A DNA stretch of 64,000 nt, from positions 224,001 to 288,000 of the forward strand of contig CAXXWX010000019.1 of the NCBI GenBank assembly GCA_963675745.2, in the 5' to 3' direction. Source of the DNA: Phycisphaerae bacterium. Lineage in GTDB: Bacteria; Planctomycetota; Phycisphaerae; UBA1845; Fen-1342. A program made the position numbers. This document shows positions 18,001 through 27,000 of the stretch, one piece after another (the first letter of the stretch is position 1; each line of letters opens with the position of its first letter).

Positions 18001-21000
18001 GAATGCCGTGCGCGAAACCGCCGCGCCGCGCATCCCGCCGCCCGCGGATGCTGGCCGTGCGCACAGCGGCGCGTTTGTCACCCTGCGCAAAGCTGAGCGG
18101 CTGCGCGGGTGCATGGGCACGCTTGACCCGTCAATGACCCTGGTTGAAGCGGTGCGCCACGCCGCGGTCAACGCCGCCCTGCACGATCCGCGCTTCCCTC
18201 CACTGCGGCCCGAGGAGCTTCATGACGTCACTGTCGAAGTGTCCGTCCTCTCCGAGCCGCACGCCATGCAATCACTTGATGATCTTGTGCTGGGTCGTCA
18301 CGGGATCATTGTCGAGGCTGGGCACCGGCGCGGCCTGTTTCTTCCACAGGTTGCCACCGACCACAACCTCGACAAGATCGCGTTTCTGAGCCGATGTTGT
18401 TCCGAGAAGGCCGGACTGGCCGCTGATGCCTGGCGTCAGCCCGATACCTCCGTCCAGATCTTCGAAGCCGAGAAGTTCAGCGAGTGACTGTGTTCGGCGG
18501 CGCTTCACTCGGCCGGAGTGCTACGCTGGCCGGCGTCCTCGTGTGCGATCCCCAGAATCAGCGCCACACCCACGCCCAACACCGCCACCACCGTCTCTTC
18601 AGACAGAATCCAGCCGGCTTGCGCCGCGTACGCCACCAGAACCGTTGCCAGTGCTACCTGCACTTTCCGGCTGACGAGCGGCCATAGCCAGCGCCGCCAT
18701 GTCCCTTCGTTATTGCTCATGCCGTCATTCCTCACCGTCACTGTTTGCGTCGGAAGTCGCGTTGTCAGCCGAGGCGCCCACCTGCTCTCCCAGCGCGGTC
18801 GCCCAGCCATCCTTGATCCGCTCAAAACGTCGATCGAGCGATTTGATGATTAGATCCACCGGCGATTGGTCGGCGTACAATTTCGCATCCACTCCCGCCA
18901 GGCGCAGCGCCTTGGCACGCTCAAACTGCAACGCCCAGAATTCCAACAAGTCACGTTCGTTCCACGCCTCGTTCAGTGCCTCTCGTTGGGCGGCGTTCAG
19001 CGTCGCATCATCCTGCTCGAGGCGGTGCAACAGATCGCGGTGCAACATGATCCGCAACCCCTCGTGCTGACGCTGGAAGACGAACTGCTGTACCTCGTCG
19101 GCGCGCTGCTGGGCGTTGAGCGCCAGACGCAGCGACGGTGCCGTGCAACCTCCCACCAGCAGCACCATAAGAACCAGCACCAGCGCTCGGCGGCAGAACC
19201 GGTGCAACGTGACGCCGTGACTCTCTTGTGCATTCACTGCCAGATCCTCACAAACCCGCGCGGCTGCGCGCCGCGGTCCCCGTTCACGATTCTCGCTTCG
19301 CGCGATGACCATGCCCTCAACCTCCCAGTTCGCCGAGCAACCGCACGGCACACACAAAACCGTCCGTCCATTTCTCAGCACTGATCGCCTCGGCGAGCTG
19401 CTGAACGGTGTCGCGCAGGGCGCTGTCGGACAGCCAGCCACCCGCCGGCGCTTCGCGCGAGAGCGTGGCGTCGTTGTAGTCGCGCGCCGCTGGTGTCTGT
19501 GTCTGCTGTACGTGCTGGGCTTCGATAAGCAGTGCGTCGATCACCTGCCGCGCCGCGCGGACAAAGGTGCGCGCCGTGTTCTGATCCAACTGTTCCGCGA
19601 ATGTCACGAGGTCCATCGTATGCCTCCGTTGTACAAGGCCGCGCTACCCGCGGCCGGGGTCCGATGTGCCGGCCGATTGCTACGCCTGGTCCAGCACCTC
19701 GAGTTGGTGCGAAAGACGGGCAAACCACTCGGCCTCTGTTTCCCGCTGCGAACGCAGTTCCTCACGCAGCGCGGTCAGCGCCGCCGTGTTTGTTCCGATC
19801 ACGTCAAGCAGGCGGTCATTAATGTCGATGAGCTGGGCTGCATGCGATTGCGACGCCTCGACGGCACGCGATGTTCGTACGCGCTCCTGACGCTCATACC
19901 ACCACATCACGAATAGCAGCCCCGCGATCCCCAGCGATGGAATCTGCTCCACGACCGCGTCGAGCATCACGGCACCAACTCGTACCACACGGTCAACTGG
20001 AAGTCCTTGTCGAGTCCGTCCATGCTGTTCGTGAACACCAGCGCTTCGCCGATTTTGGTTGTCACCCCATACTCGCGCCCGAAGAACAGGTCATGCGGGG
20101 CATAGCTGTCGATTCGCAGCCAGCCAAGAATGGTCGTCGGCGTCTCCTCCCCCAGACGCGACTTCAATGTCAGCCTGCCGGTGTCCGTGCCGCTGTACAG
20201 CACGCGCGTGATCAGCACGCGCTTGCCGGCAACAGCCGCCACAAGTTCGGCGTTAATCTGAGACCCCGAGTGTTGCGCCGTGGCAATCGCCATCTTCTGT
20301 ATCTCCTGTGTCTCAACAATGGTCGCGCAGGTACGCCGGATGCCGCGCTCAAAGTCCGTCGAGTTCGTCTCCGGTGAACTTGCGCGCACTCCCCGAATAC
20401 CGCGGCGAATCGTCCACCGCCGTCGGGCCGGCAATCGGGCGCGCCGCCGGTAGGTTGATCGCGCCGCGCGCCACTCCCTTGAACCACTCAGTGGTGGCCA
20501 GGTACACATCACGGACGCGACCCGGAATGTCACCCACGAACGGCGAGCTCTTCCACGCACCGTACTCAGCAAAATCCAACACTCGCGCCTGTAAGGTCGC
20601 TTCAAGGTCCGCGTTGGCGCTGATGTTGATCGGTGTCGCGTAACGCACTGACAAATAGCTGTCGGCTTCCGACTGGGCTTCGTCAATGATCTGTTGCGCG
20701 ACGCTCGCTGATGCCGTCTTGCCATCAACCCTGTCTGTGAGCCGCGCGTAGAGCAAACTGCCCAGCCGGGCAGTGAGATCCGCGGTCGTGATGTATGCCA
20801 CTGTCGCTCTCCTCGGCGGCGCGCCCGGGGTCACGTGGACCCCGGTGCGACACCGCTGTGGGAAAAGGCTCCCCCGCTCGCGTTTCTGTTATGTCAGCGT
20901 CACCAGGCAGGCGTTTTGCCAGAAGCCATACCCCGCCTCGTGAATCGCCTTCACGCCGTACTGGTGCTGGTTCTCATTGATCTCGAGCTCACTGCCCTCG

Positions 21001-24000: not shown

Positions 24001-27000
24001 TCCGCGAGTTGGCCGCGCCGCATGAAGTAGTCCTTGCGCAAAACCGTGTCGAAGAAGAACAGCAACGGCTCGACGTCCGTCGGCCCCACCCGCCGCACAC
24101 TGAGGTTCGCCACACGCCTTGGTTCCGCCGTGGCGCTATCGTTTTTCCGCGTGCGTTTGTTCACGATTGGCCCTCCCGCGAGACGGTGGTTTCGCCACTC
24201 TGAGCCTGCGGGATGCCCAACGCCTGGTGCAACCATGGCAGCGGTATGGACAGTCCCAGGTCGTTGACCGCAACGGCCAACGTCTCGGCCAGGACTTTCG
24301 TATCCACCGATTGCACCAACGACCGCCGAAAGTGCGGCACGGGAACATCATCGCCAAAGCGCGCCTGCACGATCGGCTTGAGCACATCGCGGCGCAGCGT
24401 GTCTGCCTCGTCGTTTATGTCGTCGACAAGCAGGTCTTCGCGGACGCGGTCGTGGACCTCCGCCGCCGCACGCGAGCCCGTGTTTCCCATGTCGGTCGTC
24501 AGGTGTTGCCCCAGCCAGAGAATGGTTATCTCGGTATTGCAGTAGTCCTGGAGTGGCAGGTAAGGCTTGTCACCGCCCTTGGATTCGAGAAAGTCCATCT
24601 CGACGTTCTTGCTGAACGCCGCCACCGCGTCGGTGCCCAAACGCGTGAGCATCTTCAGCAGCTCACTCTTGTCGGGCTCCGGCGTGCCGGGTTCATAACG
24701 CGCGACCCGCACGGGCATGCCGGCGATCTGCGAGTAGATAAGCCAATCTTTGAAGCTCAGGTTCTGGGCCACATAGAGCAGCACGGAGGCACGCAGCAAC
24801 CCATCCTCAAAGTGTCGTCCCGGACGCGGGCGCGGCTTGTGAACGATCCATTTGGTCGGGTGTTCGTCGAGCGCAATCCCGAATGAGGCGCTGTCCGCCG
24901 TGCGCACGCACAGCCGCCACGGCTGCTGCGGGTCGGCGACCAGGCGCGAGTACGGCACGGGCACAACATCCACCAGCCGACCACGCTCCCACACCAGTTC
25001 GGCAACGGATATGCCATAGCCGATTGCGTTGGCCAGGTGGTCGAGCGCTTCACGGAATCGGTCAAGCCCCGCAAGCGTTGCTCGGCAATGTTCAACCGCG
25101 GCAGCCGCATCCCCCGCGATACTCCGGTGATCGGCGCTCTTGCAGTCTGGCGGCGACTGCAACTGCCCGGGTGAGAGCTCCCACTCCAGTCCGGTCAGCG
25201 CCAGGCGGCGCGTCGCCTCGACGGCGGCCAGCCGCGGCCATTTTTGCAGCATCTCGGAGAACAGTTCGAATTGCAGTTGCGGCGCGCCGGAGTCGGCGCT
25301 TTGCAGGAAGCTCAGCAGGCGGGCGGGCGTGATGCCCACGCTGGGGTACATGCGCAAGCTGTCCTCGCGCCAGGGCCGGATCACACGGCCATCGCACGCC
25401 GGCGCGGTTTTCTCTCCCGGCAGCAGCGATCCCAGGGTCTTTAGCAGGCTGAGGGCATGACGGCGGGTCTTCTTGAGCACGGCGGCAGCCTCCTTCACGC
25501 GGGGGGGCTGACCGCGCCCACGCCGCATGCATCAAGAATAGCACAGAAGTCTAGCTATTCTAGGACTAGCCGTCGGCCTGGCGCCGTCTGCGCCGCATTG
25601 CGCTGTTCTGGTGGACTATCCCCCTGCCAAGTCACCGGCCCCAACGAGTGGAAATTGTCCCCCGCACCTCGCGCCCGGGGCCGCACGCTCCTCTCGGGCG
25701 CGGATTACTCGGGCACGCCGTCGGCGGTGCGTTGTCGCGCCGCCCCTACGCGCGTGCTGCCGCACTCCGGGCACTTCACGGTCTCACTCGTGTCCGCCGG
25801 CACAAACCGCTCGTTACACGCGCGGCATTCCCATACCGGATAGCAATCACGCGACCCCGTGTCAGGGCACACCGCCGGATAAACCCGTTGGGCATCCATG
25901 GGCAGCTCGAATTCGGCGCCGGTCGACAGGCTGCGCACTATCACGACAGCCGGAGTCGCCTTGCCCCCTGGTTGAGCGCTTAGCATGACGTAGACCACGC
26001 CGGCGGTCAGGAGCAACGCAAGCCCGATCGTCGCCATCAGCCAATGATGGCGACGCAGGCGCCGGGCAAATGCGCCGACAGAGACATCGCCGTCGCCGTC
26101 AATCGCCGAGTGGAGCGTTCTTAGTGATTGTGATCCATCACGACGCATGCTCGATCCTCGTCCGCCATCTAATATGGTACCGGCGCGAATTGGGCAAGGC
26201 GTCAAACCTCACTCCTCAAATGCCGCCGCCTCCCTCGCTCTCCATCTCCGGCCTGCTACACTACCACTACCATGAGCTTCCGCACCGGCATCGGCTACGA
26301 TCTCCACCGCACCACCGAACAGCGCCCGCTCGTGCTCGGCGGCGTGACGATTGACGCCCCGTTCGGCCTCGCCGGCCATAGCGATGCTGATGTCGTGCTG
26401 CATGCGCTATGCGACGCACTGCTGGGGGCCGCGGGCCTCGGCGACATCGGCGAGCTCTTCCCGGATACCGATCCCACTTACGAGAATGCGGACAGTTGTG
26501 TGTTCGTCCACGAAGTCCTGCGACGCGTCCGCGCCGCCGGCTTCGAACCGGTCAACGTCGACATCATCATCCACGCCCAAAAGCCCAAGCTCGGCGAACA
26601 CAAGTCGACCATCCGGGCGTCACTCGCCAAGCTGTGCAGCCTGCCCTCCGAAGCCGTCGGCGTGAAGGCCACCACCAACGAGGGCCTCGACGCCATCGGT
26701 CGCGGCGAGGCACTCGCCTGCTGGGCAACCGTGTTGCTGGCATCCCGCTGAGGTGACGTCACGCACGTCGCGCAGTCCACCTGCCTGCCGCCTCAAATCC
26801 GGCCGGCGAGCGATATGTAGGCGCTGGGGCGGCCTGCCGCTATATTTCCCCTGGAAGCCCCGCGGCGGTGCGGTTCGCGCGTCGGCTACGAGTGGGAGCG
26901 TTTTGCGTTGCTGGCTTGGTCGGTGATTAACGCATTGGCCCGAAACTGGGCCATCGTTGCCATCGCCACGACGATCATCACACTCGTCGTGGTGCCGGTG

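Follow-up and report, generated by a model that had tools for sequence, protein, structure and literature searches.

Results

A phage head module among cellular genes

The sequence analysed is a 64-kb window from Phycisphaerae bacterium (order UBA1845; GCA_963675745.2, contig CAXXWX010000019.1, positions 224,001-288,000), and all coordinates count along this window. Its module (18505-25528, minus strand) comprises genes for a portal, a GNAT, a protease/scaffold, a phrog_1731 protein, a gpT capsid protein and a Gp36 adaptor and, 3' of the adaptor, five small genes (s1-s5) with no family match in Pfam or PHROG. The head set is complete with intact reading frames, and both databases returned the gene content that the first-pass annotation had given (portal, GNAT, protease, virion protein, gpT, Gp36 and small unknowns) at the same positions. 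Occurrence is listed for loci of the type found in the window's own family (f1), the high-GC family of the order, made up of uncultured Phycisphaerae; denominators vary, and for the portal only loci with enough sequence are counted.

24161..25528, minus strand: Mu-type portal, 455 aa (longest ORF); Portal_Mu 5.3e-73, phrog_113 1.9e-73; 38/38 f1-type loci
23676..24236, minus strand: GNAT acetyltransferase between portal and protease; Acetyltransf_7 8e-12; 40/40 f1-type loci
22481..23665, minus strand: head maturation protease with scaffold-like C-terminal half (Mu gpI type); Mu-like_Pro 7e-37, phrog_328 2.9e-34; 41/41 loci
22023..22484, minus strand: phrog_1731 virion structural protein; phrog_1731 8.1e-21, phrog_122 'head decoration' 5.3e-4; 43/43 loci
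21881..22016, no strand: inverted repeat with 23-nt arms (87% complementary) spaced 90 nt apart, within the 189 nt that separate the decoration-like and capsid genes
20889..21833, minus strand: major capsid protein, Mu gpT family (HK97 fold); Mu-like_gpT 4e-43, phrog_371 3.1e-52
20349..20834, minus strand: Gp36-type head-tail adaptor; Phage_Mu_Gp36 1.2e-15, phrog_195 5.2e-18; 46/46 loci
19967..20293, minus strand: s1, 108-aa protein modelled as an all-beta jelly roll; AlphaFold2 mean pLDDT 92; 16/46 loci
19680..19988, minus strand: s2, about 95 aa, one N-terminal membrane helix, then a coiled-coil-like segment; hydrophobic stretch at residues 11-28; 35/46 loci
19317..19616, minus strand: s3, 99-aa soluble conserved protein (alignment); 43/45 loci
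18725..19312, minus strand: s4, lipoprotein with signal peptide, Gly-Cys lipobox and helical mature part of about 145 aa; 38/40 loci
18505..18720, minus strand: s5, about 70 aa, two membrane helices, conserved HEDAGR end; hydrophobic stretch at residues 57-96 (long ORF); 36/38 loci
25705..26205 (also 25705-26148), minus strand: g02536, zinc-ribbon membrane protein with one membrane helix, adjoining the module

The order's true prophages have longer portals (788-805 aa) with phrog_220/115 domains, in which a Mu-F-like domain is fused to the portal; the module portal has no such domain. The capsid protein matches solved Mu GpT-domain capsid chains (2.5e-29). The phrog_1731 protein is present in a short form of 153 aa, most relatives having a form of about 245 aa, and its gene position and weak phrog_122 match indicate that it is probably a head decoration protein. 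The inverted repeat matched no Rfam family at E<=0.1.

Four of the five small genes (s2-s5) proved to be conserved, real genes, whereas s1 is accessory: it occurs in roughly one third to one half of the relatives and is duplicated in two. The s1 model has 74 BFVD matches at E<=1e-3 and resembles both the KHP40 cement protein (Foldseek E 1.1e-3, TM 0.61; structural Z 8.3) and XepA (Z 10.5); s1 may be a capsid cement or decoration protein, or XepA-like. In s2, which carries the conserved motif LxSLGxxGLLFVMWWxERxER...ALREELR, the Arg-rich stretch after the helix suggests that the C-terminal part is cytoplasmic. No Pfam or PHROG match, phage match or informative Atlas match was obtained for s3. 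The start of s4 at 19312 is a guess; it has a hydrophobic stretch, and 'GC(T/S)xES' is invariant in 15/15 aligned sequences. s5, with the conserved motif WxxWxWPLxSRKVQVAxAT...VLGVGVALILGIAHEDAGR, is holin-like in size and topology and could act as a holin. Pfam, PHROG and further searches revealed no similarity of s2-s5 to known lysis proteins, and putative holin, release or docking roles are suggested by size, hydrophobic helices and the lipobox. The zinc-ribbon matches of g02536 lie under the Pfam cut-off (Zn_ribbon_8 1.4e-4), and this gene, previously counted as part of the cluster, is present in none of the 38 relatives with enough upstream sequence and is excluded from the module here.

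Both flanks are cellular. One encodes IspF, an alpha/beta hydrolase and a GH3-family protein; the opposite flank encodes AMMECR1, an undecaprenyl-phosphate-translocase-like protein, an SSF symporter and an OPT transporter. The module has the same composition as its flanks. No integrase lies near it (the closest Phage_integrase match on the contig is >120 kb away), the 64-kb window contains no tRNA, and no att-like direct repeat was found around the module. An AMMECR1/DUF368-type downstream flank is common to 9/33 relatives, distant ones included, which suggests an ancestral fixed site; the other 24/33 lack it, and flanks differ in most relatives.

Packaging and tail genes

The large terminase gene (phrog_38, 4.8e-93) stands alone on another contig of the same genome (C16:110164-111768), next to genes for an ABC-F ATPase, NusA and a glycosyltransferase and unknown genes. 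It is present in 25/25 f1 genomes with varying neighbours, and at least 17 of 18 sequences keep the Walker A, Walker B and nuclease motifs. Since it adjoins the portal in just 1/38 f1-type loci, its separation from the head genes, already noted in the first pass, is general in the family. No small terminase was identified. In the window's genome (completeness 91%), seven tail families were searched for without a match and neither a related prophage nor a tail gene was detected; tblastn with 58 proteins from related elements (tail proteins or proteins encoded downstream) and with the phi3LM21 tail proteins gave no match there or in 16 f1 loci. For the window's module, the description as a set for head formation and packaging that lacks genes for integration and replication and any recognisable tail gene thus stands.

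Distribution, inheritance and selection

The capsid gene was detected in 105/121 sampled genomes of the order (88/99 of those of high quality); of the 16 genomes without a match, at least two (G112 and G033, whose portal lies at a contig end) are contig-end artefacts. A single match was obtained in 93/105, and all 24 f1 genomes that have the gene contain one copy. A scan of 185,579 species genomes for the f1-type capsid protein, which detects close relatives only, recovered the f1-type module in planctomycete MAG records exclusively (49/49 loci, 63-80% capsid identity), with invariant gene order across these 49 species-level genomes. The head set is nevertheless dispensable, because one near-complete f1 genome (G038, 99%) possesses the terminase gene but neither portal nor capsid gene.

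Outside f1, the module tree and the RpoB tree agree on 11/13 splits (random mean 0.27). Within f1, where the RpoB tree is poorly resolved, agreement is weak (3/14 splits; 4/13 on 16 taxa), and the terminase tree shares 0/13 exact splits with either the module or the RpoB tree. Synonymous divergence matches that of RpoB when the same genome pairs are compared (e.g. 0.62 for RpoB, 0.68 for the capsid gene and 0.89 for the portal). The dN/dS values are 0.04-0.29 for the capsid gene, 0.06-0.41 for the portal, 0.18-0.61 for the protease, 0.29-0.46 for the GNAT, 0.5-0.8 for s1 and 0.15-0.67 for s2-s5 (0.15-0.67 for s4 itself). Inheritance within each lineage looks vertical and under selection, and at this level copy counts, dN/dS, shared splits and synonymous divergence support a single-copy module under purifying selection that diverges with its host.

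Two head modules in one order

The first-pass view that the same module was inherited vertically throughout the order is not supported. Capsid identity between f1 and the other families is 38%, as against 71% for RpoB, whereas among the non-f1 families the two values are similar (70% and 73%). In the capsid tree, f1 clusters with Sinorhizobium phage phi3LM21 rather than with the other families. The f1 terminase is of the phrog_38 type and unlinked, in contrast to the phrog_5909/phrog_2-type terminase directly upstream of the portal in non-f1 families, and the f1 module further differs in its membrane genes and its GNAT, which, as proposed before, is confined to the window's family (40/40 f1-type loci, 0/20 loci of other families). 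Because capsid divergence is out of step with RpoB, the terminase belongs to another family, GNAT and membrane genes are present and the capsid groups with that of phi3LM21, the f1 module was captured or replaced separately: its origin is distinct from that of the other families' module, and two head modules are fixed in one order. Replacement by a related phage module, initially raised as a caveat, is the better reading given the capsid tree and terminase type. In 7/20 non-f1 loci, a conserved downstream gene carries a domain like phage tail-fibre or receptor-binding shoulder domains (Z 11.6 to the tail fibre of cyanophage A-1(L)); some non-f1 modules are therefore not strictly head-only, and the 'tail-less' description is weakened for the order as a whole.

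Discussion

Gene content, conservation, selection, co-divergence and the lack of detectable tail or mobility genes point to a module that now serves the cell in a putative use. We give about even chances to the reading that the f1 module, with its head part in the window, is a domesticated tail-less capsid and DNA-packaging machine and a fixed chromosomal trait of the family. A prohead would be built from scaffold/protease, capsid protein and portal and then matured by the protease; the unlinked large terminase, with its intact ATPase and nuclease motifs, would fill it with DNA, and the portal vertex would be closed by the Gp36 adaptor. Shell decoration would fall to the phrog_1731 protein and, in loci that have it, to the jelly-roll protein s1, and no tail would be produced. 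In place of tail genes, the module would encode 'envelope proteins', namely s2 (inner-membrane helix and coiled coil), s3, s4 (lipoprotein) and s5 (holin-like), most likely serving particle release or contact between particle and cell envelope. Particle production, DNA content, exit from the cell and arrival of DNA in another cell are what we infer from these genes. The element would be neither self-mobile nor self-replicating and would be passed on with the chromosome, and would therefore behave like a 'viriform' of the gene transfer agent type or an immobilised capsid-forming satellite; in the satellite version, the tail-less capsids would require foreign tails. To our knowledge, all gene transfer agents described so far have tails, and we know of no way in which a tail-less capsid delivers DNA by itself; the f1 module differs from described agents in that no tail was found.

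An immobilised, selfish cf-PICI-like satellite, which would form its own small tail-less capsids, package itself or nearby DNA and borrow phage tails, is unlikely. Such an element would persist through difficulty of loss or interference with helpers, not through use to the host. cf-PICIs are reported to release DNA-filled capsids that have no tail of their own and borrow one, and the f1 gene set equals their packaging module minus HNH and small terminase (10.1101/2025.02.11.637232). The adaptor, the tail-docking part, is retained in 46/46 loci, true siphovirus-type prophages with related head genes occur in the order (G111b, G063b), and two fixed head modules are what frequent emergence of such elements would predict. 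However, there is no integrase, replication or regulation module, the terminase on another contig makes self-packaging as a unit impossible, and the window's genome yielded neither a related prophage nor a tail gene; near-universal presence, host co-divergence across RpoB distances of 70-80% identity and synonymous divergence equal to that of RpoB also argue against it. A low probability is assigned to a complete gene transfer agent with tail, small terminase and regulators scattered elsewhere and too divergent for the searches used. Known agents occupy several loci (PMC9662315), and FpGTA consists of two operons 125 kb apart (PMC12946183); moreover, the terminase is already unlinked, non-f1 modules hold unannotatable downstream genes, one with the tail-fibre-like domain, and the genome is 91% complete. 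Against this stand the negative searches with seven tail families and by tblastn (58 proteins and phi3LM21 tail proteins, in the genome itself and 16 f1 loci) and, in f1, the membrane proteins at the position after the adaptor.

We regard as somewhat less probable again an anti-phage device, whose resident capsid, portal and terminase proteins would disturb related incoming phages during assembly or packaging, or would themselves package DNA upon infection and destroy it, with abortive lysis brought about by the membrane proteins. Interference of satellites with helper phages is known, the order has related phages in circulation, and the module contains a holin-like gene and has long been retained under selection without mobility genes, yet interference would not call for a head set this full and coherent, protease, scaffold, adaptor and decoration included. 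No defence-family match was seen either, no search aimed at such families, PADLOC included, having been made. HK97-fold shells have been recruited as compartments, and the absent tail and the GNAT within the head operon in 40/40 loci, as cargo or modifier, would fit an encapsulin-like shell holding proteins or metabolites rather than DNA; we rate this marginally below the anti-phage device, given that portal (38/38) and adaptor (46/46) are retained and the terminase occurs in 25/25 f1 genomes with conserved ATPase and nuclease motifs, none of which a protein compartment needs. Finally, a decaying, functionless prophage remnant is highly improbable and already stands in contradiction to the data on selection and conservation. 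Only phage genes are present and most phage functions are missing, the head genes were lost in one f1 genome, and portal and terminase are missing at the locus in 3/20 non-f1 loci; but frames are intact, dN/dS is far below 1 across divergences with synonymous sites near saturation, the capsid gene persists in 105/121 genomes of the order, and all 49 species-level genomes keep the same gene order.

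Gene content and setting of the module

The conserved unit of about 7 kb (window positions 18505-25528) comprises head genes and small envelope genes only, with no replication or regulation module, and its head genes are arranged as follows.

Head genes of the module and the gene upstream of it (window coordinates, strand, assignment)
25705-26205, minus strand: zinc-ribbon membrane protein, upstream of the portal gene
24161-25528, minus strand: portal (Portal_Mu, 5.3e-73)
23676-24236, minus strand: GNAT acetyltransferase (Pfam/PHROGs)
22481-23665, minus strand: Mu gpI-type protease/scaffold protein (Mu-like_Pro, 7e-37)
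22023-22484, minus strand: virion protein (phrog_1731, 8.1e-21; weak match to phrog_122, 'head decoration')
20889-21833, minus strand: gpT major capsid protein (phrog_371, 3.1e-52)
20349-20834, minus strand: Gp36 adaptor (Pfam/PHROGs)

Portal_Mu, Mu-like_Pro, Mu-like_gpT and Phage_Mu_Gp36 follow one another in the Mu order, and all four score above the curated Pfam cut-offs (246.7, 128.1, 148.3 and 58.2 bits against 23.9, 25.2, 20.1 and 24.7, respectively); the capsid protein is also similar to solved Mu GpT-domain capsids (2.5e-29). When 185,579 genomes were scanned, 49 species-level genomes emerged with a module of the type found in the window's family (f1), and the order portal-GNAT-protease-phrog_1731 protein-capsid-Gp36 proved invariant in 16 family relatives and then in these 49. 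Counted only at loci with enough sequence, the genes for portal (38/38), GNAT (40/40), protease (41/41), phrog_1731 protein (43/43) and Gp36 adaptor (46/46) are never missing. The zinc-ribbon gene and IspF, by comparison, each adjoin the module in 0 of 38 other loci.

The flanks are cellular, with IspF, a hydrolase, a GH3-family protein and a sigma factor on one side and AMMECR1, an undecaprenyl-phosphate-translocase-like protein, an SSF symporter and an OPT transporter on the other, and the module has the same GC and third-position GC as these flanks. We found no tRNA in the 64-kb window, no att-like repeats at the module, no transposase among the ORFs of the locus and no integrase or mobility gene among the ORFs within about 15 kb on either side; the closest Phage_integrase (tyrosine recombinase) match on the same contig lies more than 120 kb away. 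Scans for regulatory signals stayed at chance level for the sigma-70 consensus (2 promoter-like sites, 1.3 expected) and for terminators (9 sites, 6.2 expected), and no Rfam family matched at E<=0.1. When 40 regions upstream of the portal and 19 upstream of the terminase were compared crudely by k-mers, only GC-rich, low-information words and no shared control site emerged.

Between the decoration-like gene and the capsid gene lies an AT-richer inverted repeat (21881-22016) with 23-nt arms that are 87% complementary. The decoration-like phrog_1731 protein itself is about 100 residues shorter in the window (153 aa) than in most relatives (about 245 aa). Membrane proteins with a common zinc-ribbon motif, two Cys-x-x-Cys pairs within a conserved 20-residue stretch, are encoded beside the terminase of the window's genome, G000 (locus L003:7627-9003), and beside the portal gene in three relatives (L035:14502-15359, L045:14509-15300, L047:3787-4593); the window's upstream gene (25705-26205) also encodes a zinc-ribbon membrane protein, of a sequence different from this set. 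Their proximity to terminase and portal may be a coincidence in a large family of paralogues, or these proteins may be regulators.

Small genes downstream of the adaptor

Five small genes, s1 to s5, follow Gp36 and, like the GNAT gene, are confined to f1 modules. Four of them recur on the same strand in most loci (s2 in 35/46, s3 in 43/45, s4 in 38/40 and s5 in 36/38); s1 is present in only 16 of 46, with two copies in two genomes. The minus-strand frames carry the conservation, and the plus-strand ORF at 19305-19916, the choice of a simple gene caller, is an antisense artefact. Alignment and hydropathy describe s2 as a protein with a single N-terminal membrane helix, an Arg-rich stretch and then a conserved coiled-coil-like segment, which by the positive-inside rule would be cytoplasmic, and s3 as soluble. 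In s4, a signal peptide runs up to an invariant Gly-Cys lipobox and the mature part of about 145 residues is helical, and s5, with about 70 residues, two membrane helices and an invariant HEDAGR end, is holin-like by size and shape only. As judged from their sequences, the small genes are real and their products are envelope proteins. None of s2-s5 belongs to a Pfam or PHROG family, and tblastn against 50,697 phage records found nothing at E<=0.1 for any of them; an Atlas search was uninformative (s4 at 0.93 to unnamed planctomycete and viral clusters, s3 at 0.81). No lysis family was recognised among the module ORFs with Pfam and PHROGs.

A reading of s2 and s4 as spanins was rejected: the charged residues behind the s2 helix place its coiled coil in the cytoplasm, and the helical mature part of s4 (about 145 aa) is unlike the short, proline-rich type of outer-membrane spanins. 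Some 4-6 kb upstream of the portal gene lie a sigma-70-family gene (29917-30690) and an Amidase_2 N-acetylmuramoyl-L-alanine amidase gene (30841-31932); this amidase and the holin-like s5 would together make up a completed lysis set.

For s1, the predicted fold is a jelly roll (pLDDT 92). By Foldseek it resembles the KHP40 phage cement protein (E 1.1e-3, TM 0.61), and a BFVD search gave 74 matches at E<=1e-3, to many small uncharacterised Caudovirales proteins. By VIA it matches XepA, an exported protein of PBSX (Z 10.5), the turret of an archaeal virus (Z 10.3) and KHP40 cement (Z 8.3); as these values are tied, the model suggests no more than a viral jelly roll, possibly a capsid cement.

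An unlinked large terminase

The large terminase of G000 (phrog_38, 4.8e-93) stands alone on another contig, C16, among cellular and unknown genes and with no integrase, tRNA or att site nearby. In f1, it adjoins the portal gene in a single genome (G060, 1/38), and 19 f1 terminase loci revealed neither conserved neighbours nor a small-terminase candidate. The Walker A (VAPRGHAKSTC) and Walker B (RPDLxICDD) motifs and the nuclease motifs (DPATG, IxIE, HDDxPDVCA) are each conserved in at least 17 of 18 family sequences, so that the f1 terminase appears catalytically intact. Its tree shares 0 of 13 exact splits with the module or RpoB tree and is weakly supported and uninformative.

Two lineages of head module in one order

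The capsid protein was found in 105 of the 121 sampled genomes of the order (88/99 of the high-quality ones), with one match in 93 of these 105. By family, the counts are 23/25 in f1, 24/25 in f2, 7/7 in f3, 21/24 in f6 and 22/24 in f7, against 0/2 in f4 and 1/5 in f5; in two capsid-negative genomes (G112, G033) the portal gene lies at a contig end. In the rest of the class, 9 of 215 genomes carry it (E<=1e-10), and six of the nine belong to f20, a family of another order (6/7 f20 genomes). An IMG/VR scan with the capsid protein, a method for finding close relatives, gave only two loci at 38-40% identity and no close viral relative of the f1 module.

The first-pass annotation had described a single, vertically inherited module throughout the order. 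This is not supported, since f1 and the other families carry separate lineages. The window's capsid protein is 64-78% identical within f1 but 35-41% identical to that of all other families, and with RpoB as the yardstick, the f1 module has diverged much more than the elapsed time can explain.

Protein identity between and among families, with RpoB as the yardstick
f1 versus other families: RpoB 71%, capsid 38%, portal 42%, protease 30%
Among the other families: RpoB 73%, capsid 70%

The nearest phage capsid protein, from Sinorhizobium phage phi3LM21 (45% identity), is closer to f1 than the other families are, and the FastTree capsid tree separates a clade of f1 plus phi3LM21 from one of the other families plus G111b, a prophage copy in one of their genomes. 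The terminases divide likewise: the phrog_38 type occurs in 25/25 f1 genomes and at E<=1e-50 in just 8 of 95 others; in the other families, a terminase of the phrog_5909/phrog_2 type sits directly upstream of the portal gene (by PHROG in 4 loci, extended by blastp clustering to 17/20). From capsid divergence relative to RpoB, the grouping with phi3LM21 and the differing terminase families, we therefore conclude that the order holds at least two head modules, independently captured or once replaced. A variant in f20 (L129, L130) is 52-57% identical in capsid and 43-47% in decoration protein to the non-f1 lineage, with a portal only about 25% identical, a protease (phrog_976) and terminase of other types, and eight unknown same-strand genes downstream, one of them weakly matching a minor tail protein. 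As these lineages warn, a Pfam family found throughout an order can mask non-orthologous replacement.

In three of 20 non-f1 loci (L056, L060, L069), portal and terminase genes do not adjoin the protease-capsid genes; the modules there are either split, like those of f1, or in partial decay. The yardstick protein itself is longer in f2 (1493-1581 aa, e.g. L087-L094) than in other families (about 1260-1310 aa), and the split of the rpoB model after position ~391 indicates a lineage-specific insertion of about 200 residues.

Inheritance and selection within the lineages

FastTree trees were compared through counts of shared splits. For 16 genomes from four families outside f1, concatenated module proteins give a tree with 11 of 13 splits in common with that of RpoB, against a mean of 0.27 under random relabelling. 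In f1, only 3 of 14 splits are shared (P 0.004 against label shuffles; 4/13 on 16 taxa), and the inner branches of the f1 RpoB tree are short and poorly supported; the copy number of the module in f1 is one. Synonymous divergence of the module is close to that of RpoB in the same pair (G064/G043: RpoB 0.62, capsid 0.68, portal 0.89; G018/G082: RpoB 1.11, capsid 1.01, portal 0.88), which makes recent transfer unlikely. The AMMECR1 or DUF368-type gene of the window's downstream flank stands beside the module in 9 of 33 relatives, the distant G072 among them, which suggests an ancestral site with later rearrangements. Within lineages, the module looks vertically inherited and diversified with its hosts, with weaker tree agreement in f1; this does not extend to the order as a whole, which has two lineages.

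dN/dS of module genes (Nei-Gojobori, six close genome pairs)
Capsid: 0.04-0.29
Portal: 0.06-0.41
Adaptor: 0.10-0.56
s2-s5: 0.15-0.67
s1: 0.51-0.82

Are there tail genes?

Whole-genome searches of G000 for Phage_sheath_1, PhageMin_Tail, phrog_26, Baseplate_J, Phage_tail_2, phrog_290 and phrog_58 were all negative, and the positive controls matched in known genomes. The second module copies of G111 and G063 (G111b, G063b) belong to real siphovirus-type prophages with a Mu-F-like-fused portal, a Neck1 protein, a minor tail protein and a tape measure; neither their tail proteins nor those of phi3LM21 have a tblastn match in the window's genome, and 58 downstream proteins of related elements matched neither that genome nor 16 f1 loci. 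Since G000 is 91% complete, we speak of tail genes as not found rather than absent, and any that are present may be divergent.

In several modules outside f1, conserved unknown genes follow the adaptor gene, namely those for a Gp37-like protein of about 155 aa (12/20 loci), a 282-aa protein (7/20), a 707-aa protein (4/20) and a 168-aa protein (4/20), and another five-gene set (2-3 loci), none of which has a Pfam or PHROG family or a PDB sequence match. The model of the 282-aa protein is poor overall (mean pLDDT 47.8) and usable only at residues ~62-148. This part matches a shoulder domain known from tail fibres and receptor-binding proteins of phages, with the tail fibre of cyanophage A-1(L) in first place (Z 11.6, 21% identity) and further tail fibres or receptor-binding proteins well below it (Z 7.9, 7.6, 7.3). 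The presence of this predicted domain in several non-f1 modules argues that these are not strictly head-only. The earlier description of the module as tail-less agrees with the window's genome, in which no tail was detected, and is weakened for the order as a whole, where 7 of 20 non-f1 loci carry the tail-fibre-like gene.

Comparison with known systems and proposed role

Described gene transfer agents (GTAs) are few and mostly from Alphaproteobacteria. The genes for their particles are part of the host genome, frequently spread over several loci, and come with no functions for replication or integration; the agents are mostly vertically inherited and co-diversifying, and form tailed-phage-like particles whose heads are too small for their own genes, package mostly random host DNA and deliver it to other cells (PMC9662315). 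The module resembles RcGTA, BaGTA and BhGTA in having structural genes without replication or integration genes, more than one locus, vertical descent, co-divergence with the host and purifying selection (PMC9662315), a likeness shared by FpGTA, a candidate agent of Faecalibacterium (PMC12946183). It differs in its Mu-type head, in the GNAT and four envelope proteins built into the operon and in its planctomycete host; no tail genes were detected in the window's genome, whereas the GTAs described in PMC9662315 are tailed, apart from Bartonella particles with a short tail or none in one early report cited there. Of the hallmarks of a GTA, the genomic ones, namely several loci (head genes on C19, terminase on C16, no integrase nearby), no replication genes, vertical descent and co-divergence, are present, and the morphological one, the tailed particle, appears to be lacking in G000. 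A full gene transfer agent whose tail genes are hidden would fit the former, but we regard it as improbable in view of the negative tail searches.

Among satellites, capsid-forming PICIs (cf-PICIs) have genes for capsid, protease, portal, adaptor and large terminase, encode no tail and release tail-less, DNA-filled capsids that borrow phage tails; they are mobile islands of 10-18 kb that also carry an integrase, modules for replication and regulation, HNH and a small terminase, and their packaging operon is of HK97 type (10.1101/2025.02.11.637232). The gene content of the module likewise amounts to a packaging module without a tail module or recognised lysis family, with capsid, protease, portal and adaptor in place and the large terminase unlinked. 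In contrast to cf-PICIs, it spans about 7 kb, lacks mobility, replication and regulation features, has a Mu-type head and is vertically inherited across the family, and no HNH or small terminase was found among its ORFs or the terminase neighbours. A selfish, immobilised satellite therefore seems unlikely to us.

The phage relatives phi3LM21, G111b and G063b show the same families in the same order (portal, protease, phrog_1731 protein, gpT capsid, Gp36), and the phi3LM21 capsid protein is sister to the f1 clade; the phi3LM21 portal, protease and adaptor have no tblastn match in the window's genome. Mu-like phages and Mu-headed siphoviruses differ in that they add neck, tail tube, tape measure, fibre, repressor, replication and lysis genes, and their portals, 788-805 aa long, bear a Mu-F-like domain, whereas the 455-aa portal of the module does not. 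With no Mu-F domain, no tail genes and no transposase at the locus, the module does not look like a Mu-like transposable prophage.

PBSX, a defective phage of Bacillus subtilis, has a lysis region xepA-xhlA-xhlB-xlyA. It likewise consists of phage-like particle genes kept by the host, and the best VIA match of s1 is XepA, with small membrane proteins following s1 in the module. The s1-XepA likeness is one of fold only: viral jelly rolls of no relation score on a par (Z 10.3, 9.4), and the sequences are not similar. PBSX also has a full contractile tail and an amidase, both differing from the module.

Considering the complete, selected head set, the intact unlinked terminase, the adaptor, the lack of mobility genes and of a detectable tail, and the chromosomal inheritance, we propose with about even confidence that the f1 module is a domesticated, tail-less capsid and DNA-packaging machine; gene transfer as its use is less certain than the machine itself. 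Such a machine would yield closed, DNA-filled, tail-less heads. The envelope proteins, encoded at the position of the tail genes in phage relatives, would release the particles, with s5 acting as a holin, or the particles might instead be tied to the envelope through the lipoprotein s4 and the coiled coil that s2 would place in the cytoplasm. What a DNA-filled capsid without a tail is used for is the question raised; possible uses are the borrowing of foreign tails, as in capsid-forming satellites, protected DNA released for uptake, export through the envelope, and defence, the last of which we think quite improbable as the role of the module. A protein compartment would share the capsid shell and appears still more remote, given that encapsulin-type shells of the HK97 fold do without portal and terminase and that portal (38/38), adaptor (46/46) and terminase (25/25 f1 genomes) are always kept here. 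A functionless remnant would agree with the missing tail and hardly at all with the dN/dS values, and we give it very little credence.

A wider reading, which we offer tentatively and consider rather doubtful, is that tail-less, DNA-filled capsids are a selected trait of the order: two head modules would have been captured independently, one in f1 and the other in the lineage ancestral to the remaining families, and f20 has a third variant. Each would have been stripped to head and terminase, the f1 tail genes being replaced by an envelope set (inner-membrane coiled-coil protein, lipoprotein, holin-like protein and soluble partner) for capsid release or envelope docking. If true, this would be the first GTA-like or capsid-export system of Planctomycetota and the first to work without its own tail. 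A full-text literature search, judged by titles and abstract openings, found no published description of such an element in this phylum, and the main text of a genomic survey of the class (PMC11266412), which places these bacteria in anammox, nitrifier and digester enrichments, makes no mention of phage, prophage or capsid. Domesticated phage structural modules, or viriforms, are a known kind; what is new here is the Mu-type head alone, the built-in GNAT and envelope set, the occurrence in planctomycetes and the fixation of modules on two independent occasions within an order. A packaging machine of head genes only, retained throughout the history of a family, would extend phage domestication to Planctomycetota, and a second, independently acquired one in sister families strengthens the case for domestication.

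Terminase variants and terminase-like genes elsewhere in the order

G038, an f1 genome that is 99% complete, keeps its 481-aa terminase intact (54% identity) but has no Portal_Mu match and no clear Mu-like_gpT match, which would mean either a recent loss of the head genes or a separate role for the terminase. In G088, the f1-type terminase (L116, G088:C1, 6342-10159) is interrupted by about 3.8 kb between query residues ~141 and ~174; the interruption may stem from an insertion element or an intein-like insert, or may mark a broken gene. Elsewhere in the order, multi-copy proteins of about 760-780 aa match, in their N-terminal part, only the ATPase half of the large terminase (phrog_38 positions ~250-530, E ~1e-40); examples are G048:C24:4181-5263, five copies in G045, G038:C1:1750274-1751629 and G038:C4:306753-308120. 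In G038, proteins of about 740 aa with a weakly gpT-like C-terminus are encoded 6-12 kb downstream of two of these genes, and the ATPase-half proteins may belong to another capsid- or terminase-related mobile element.
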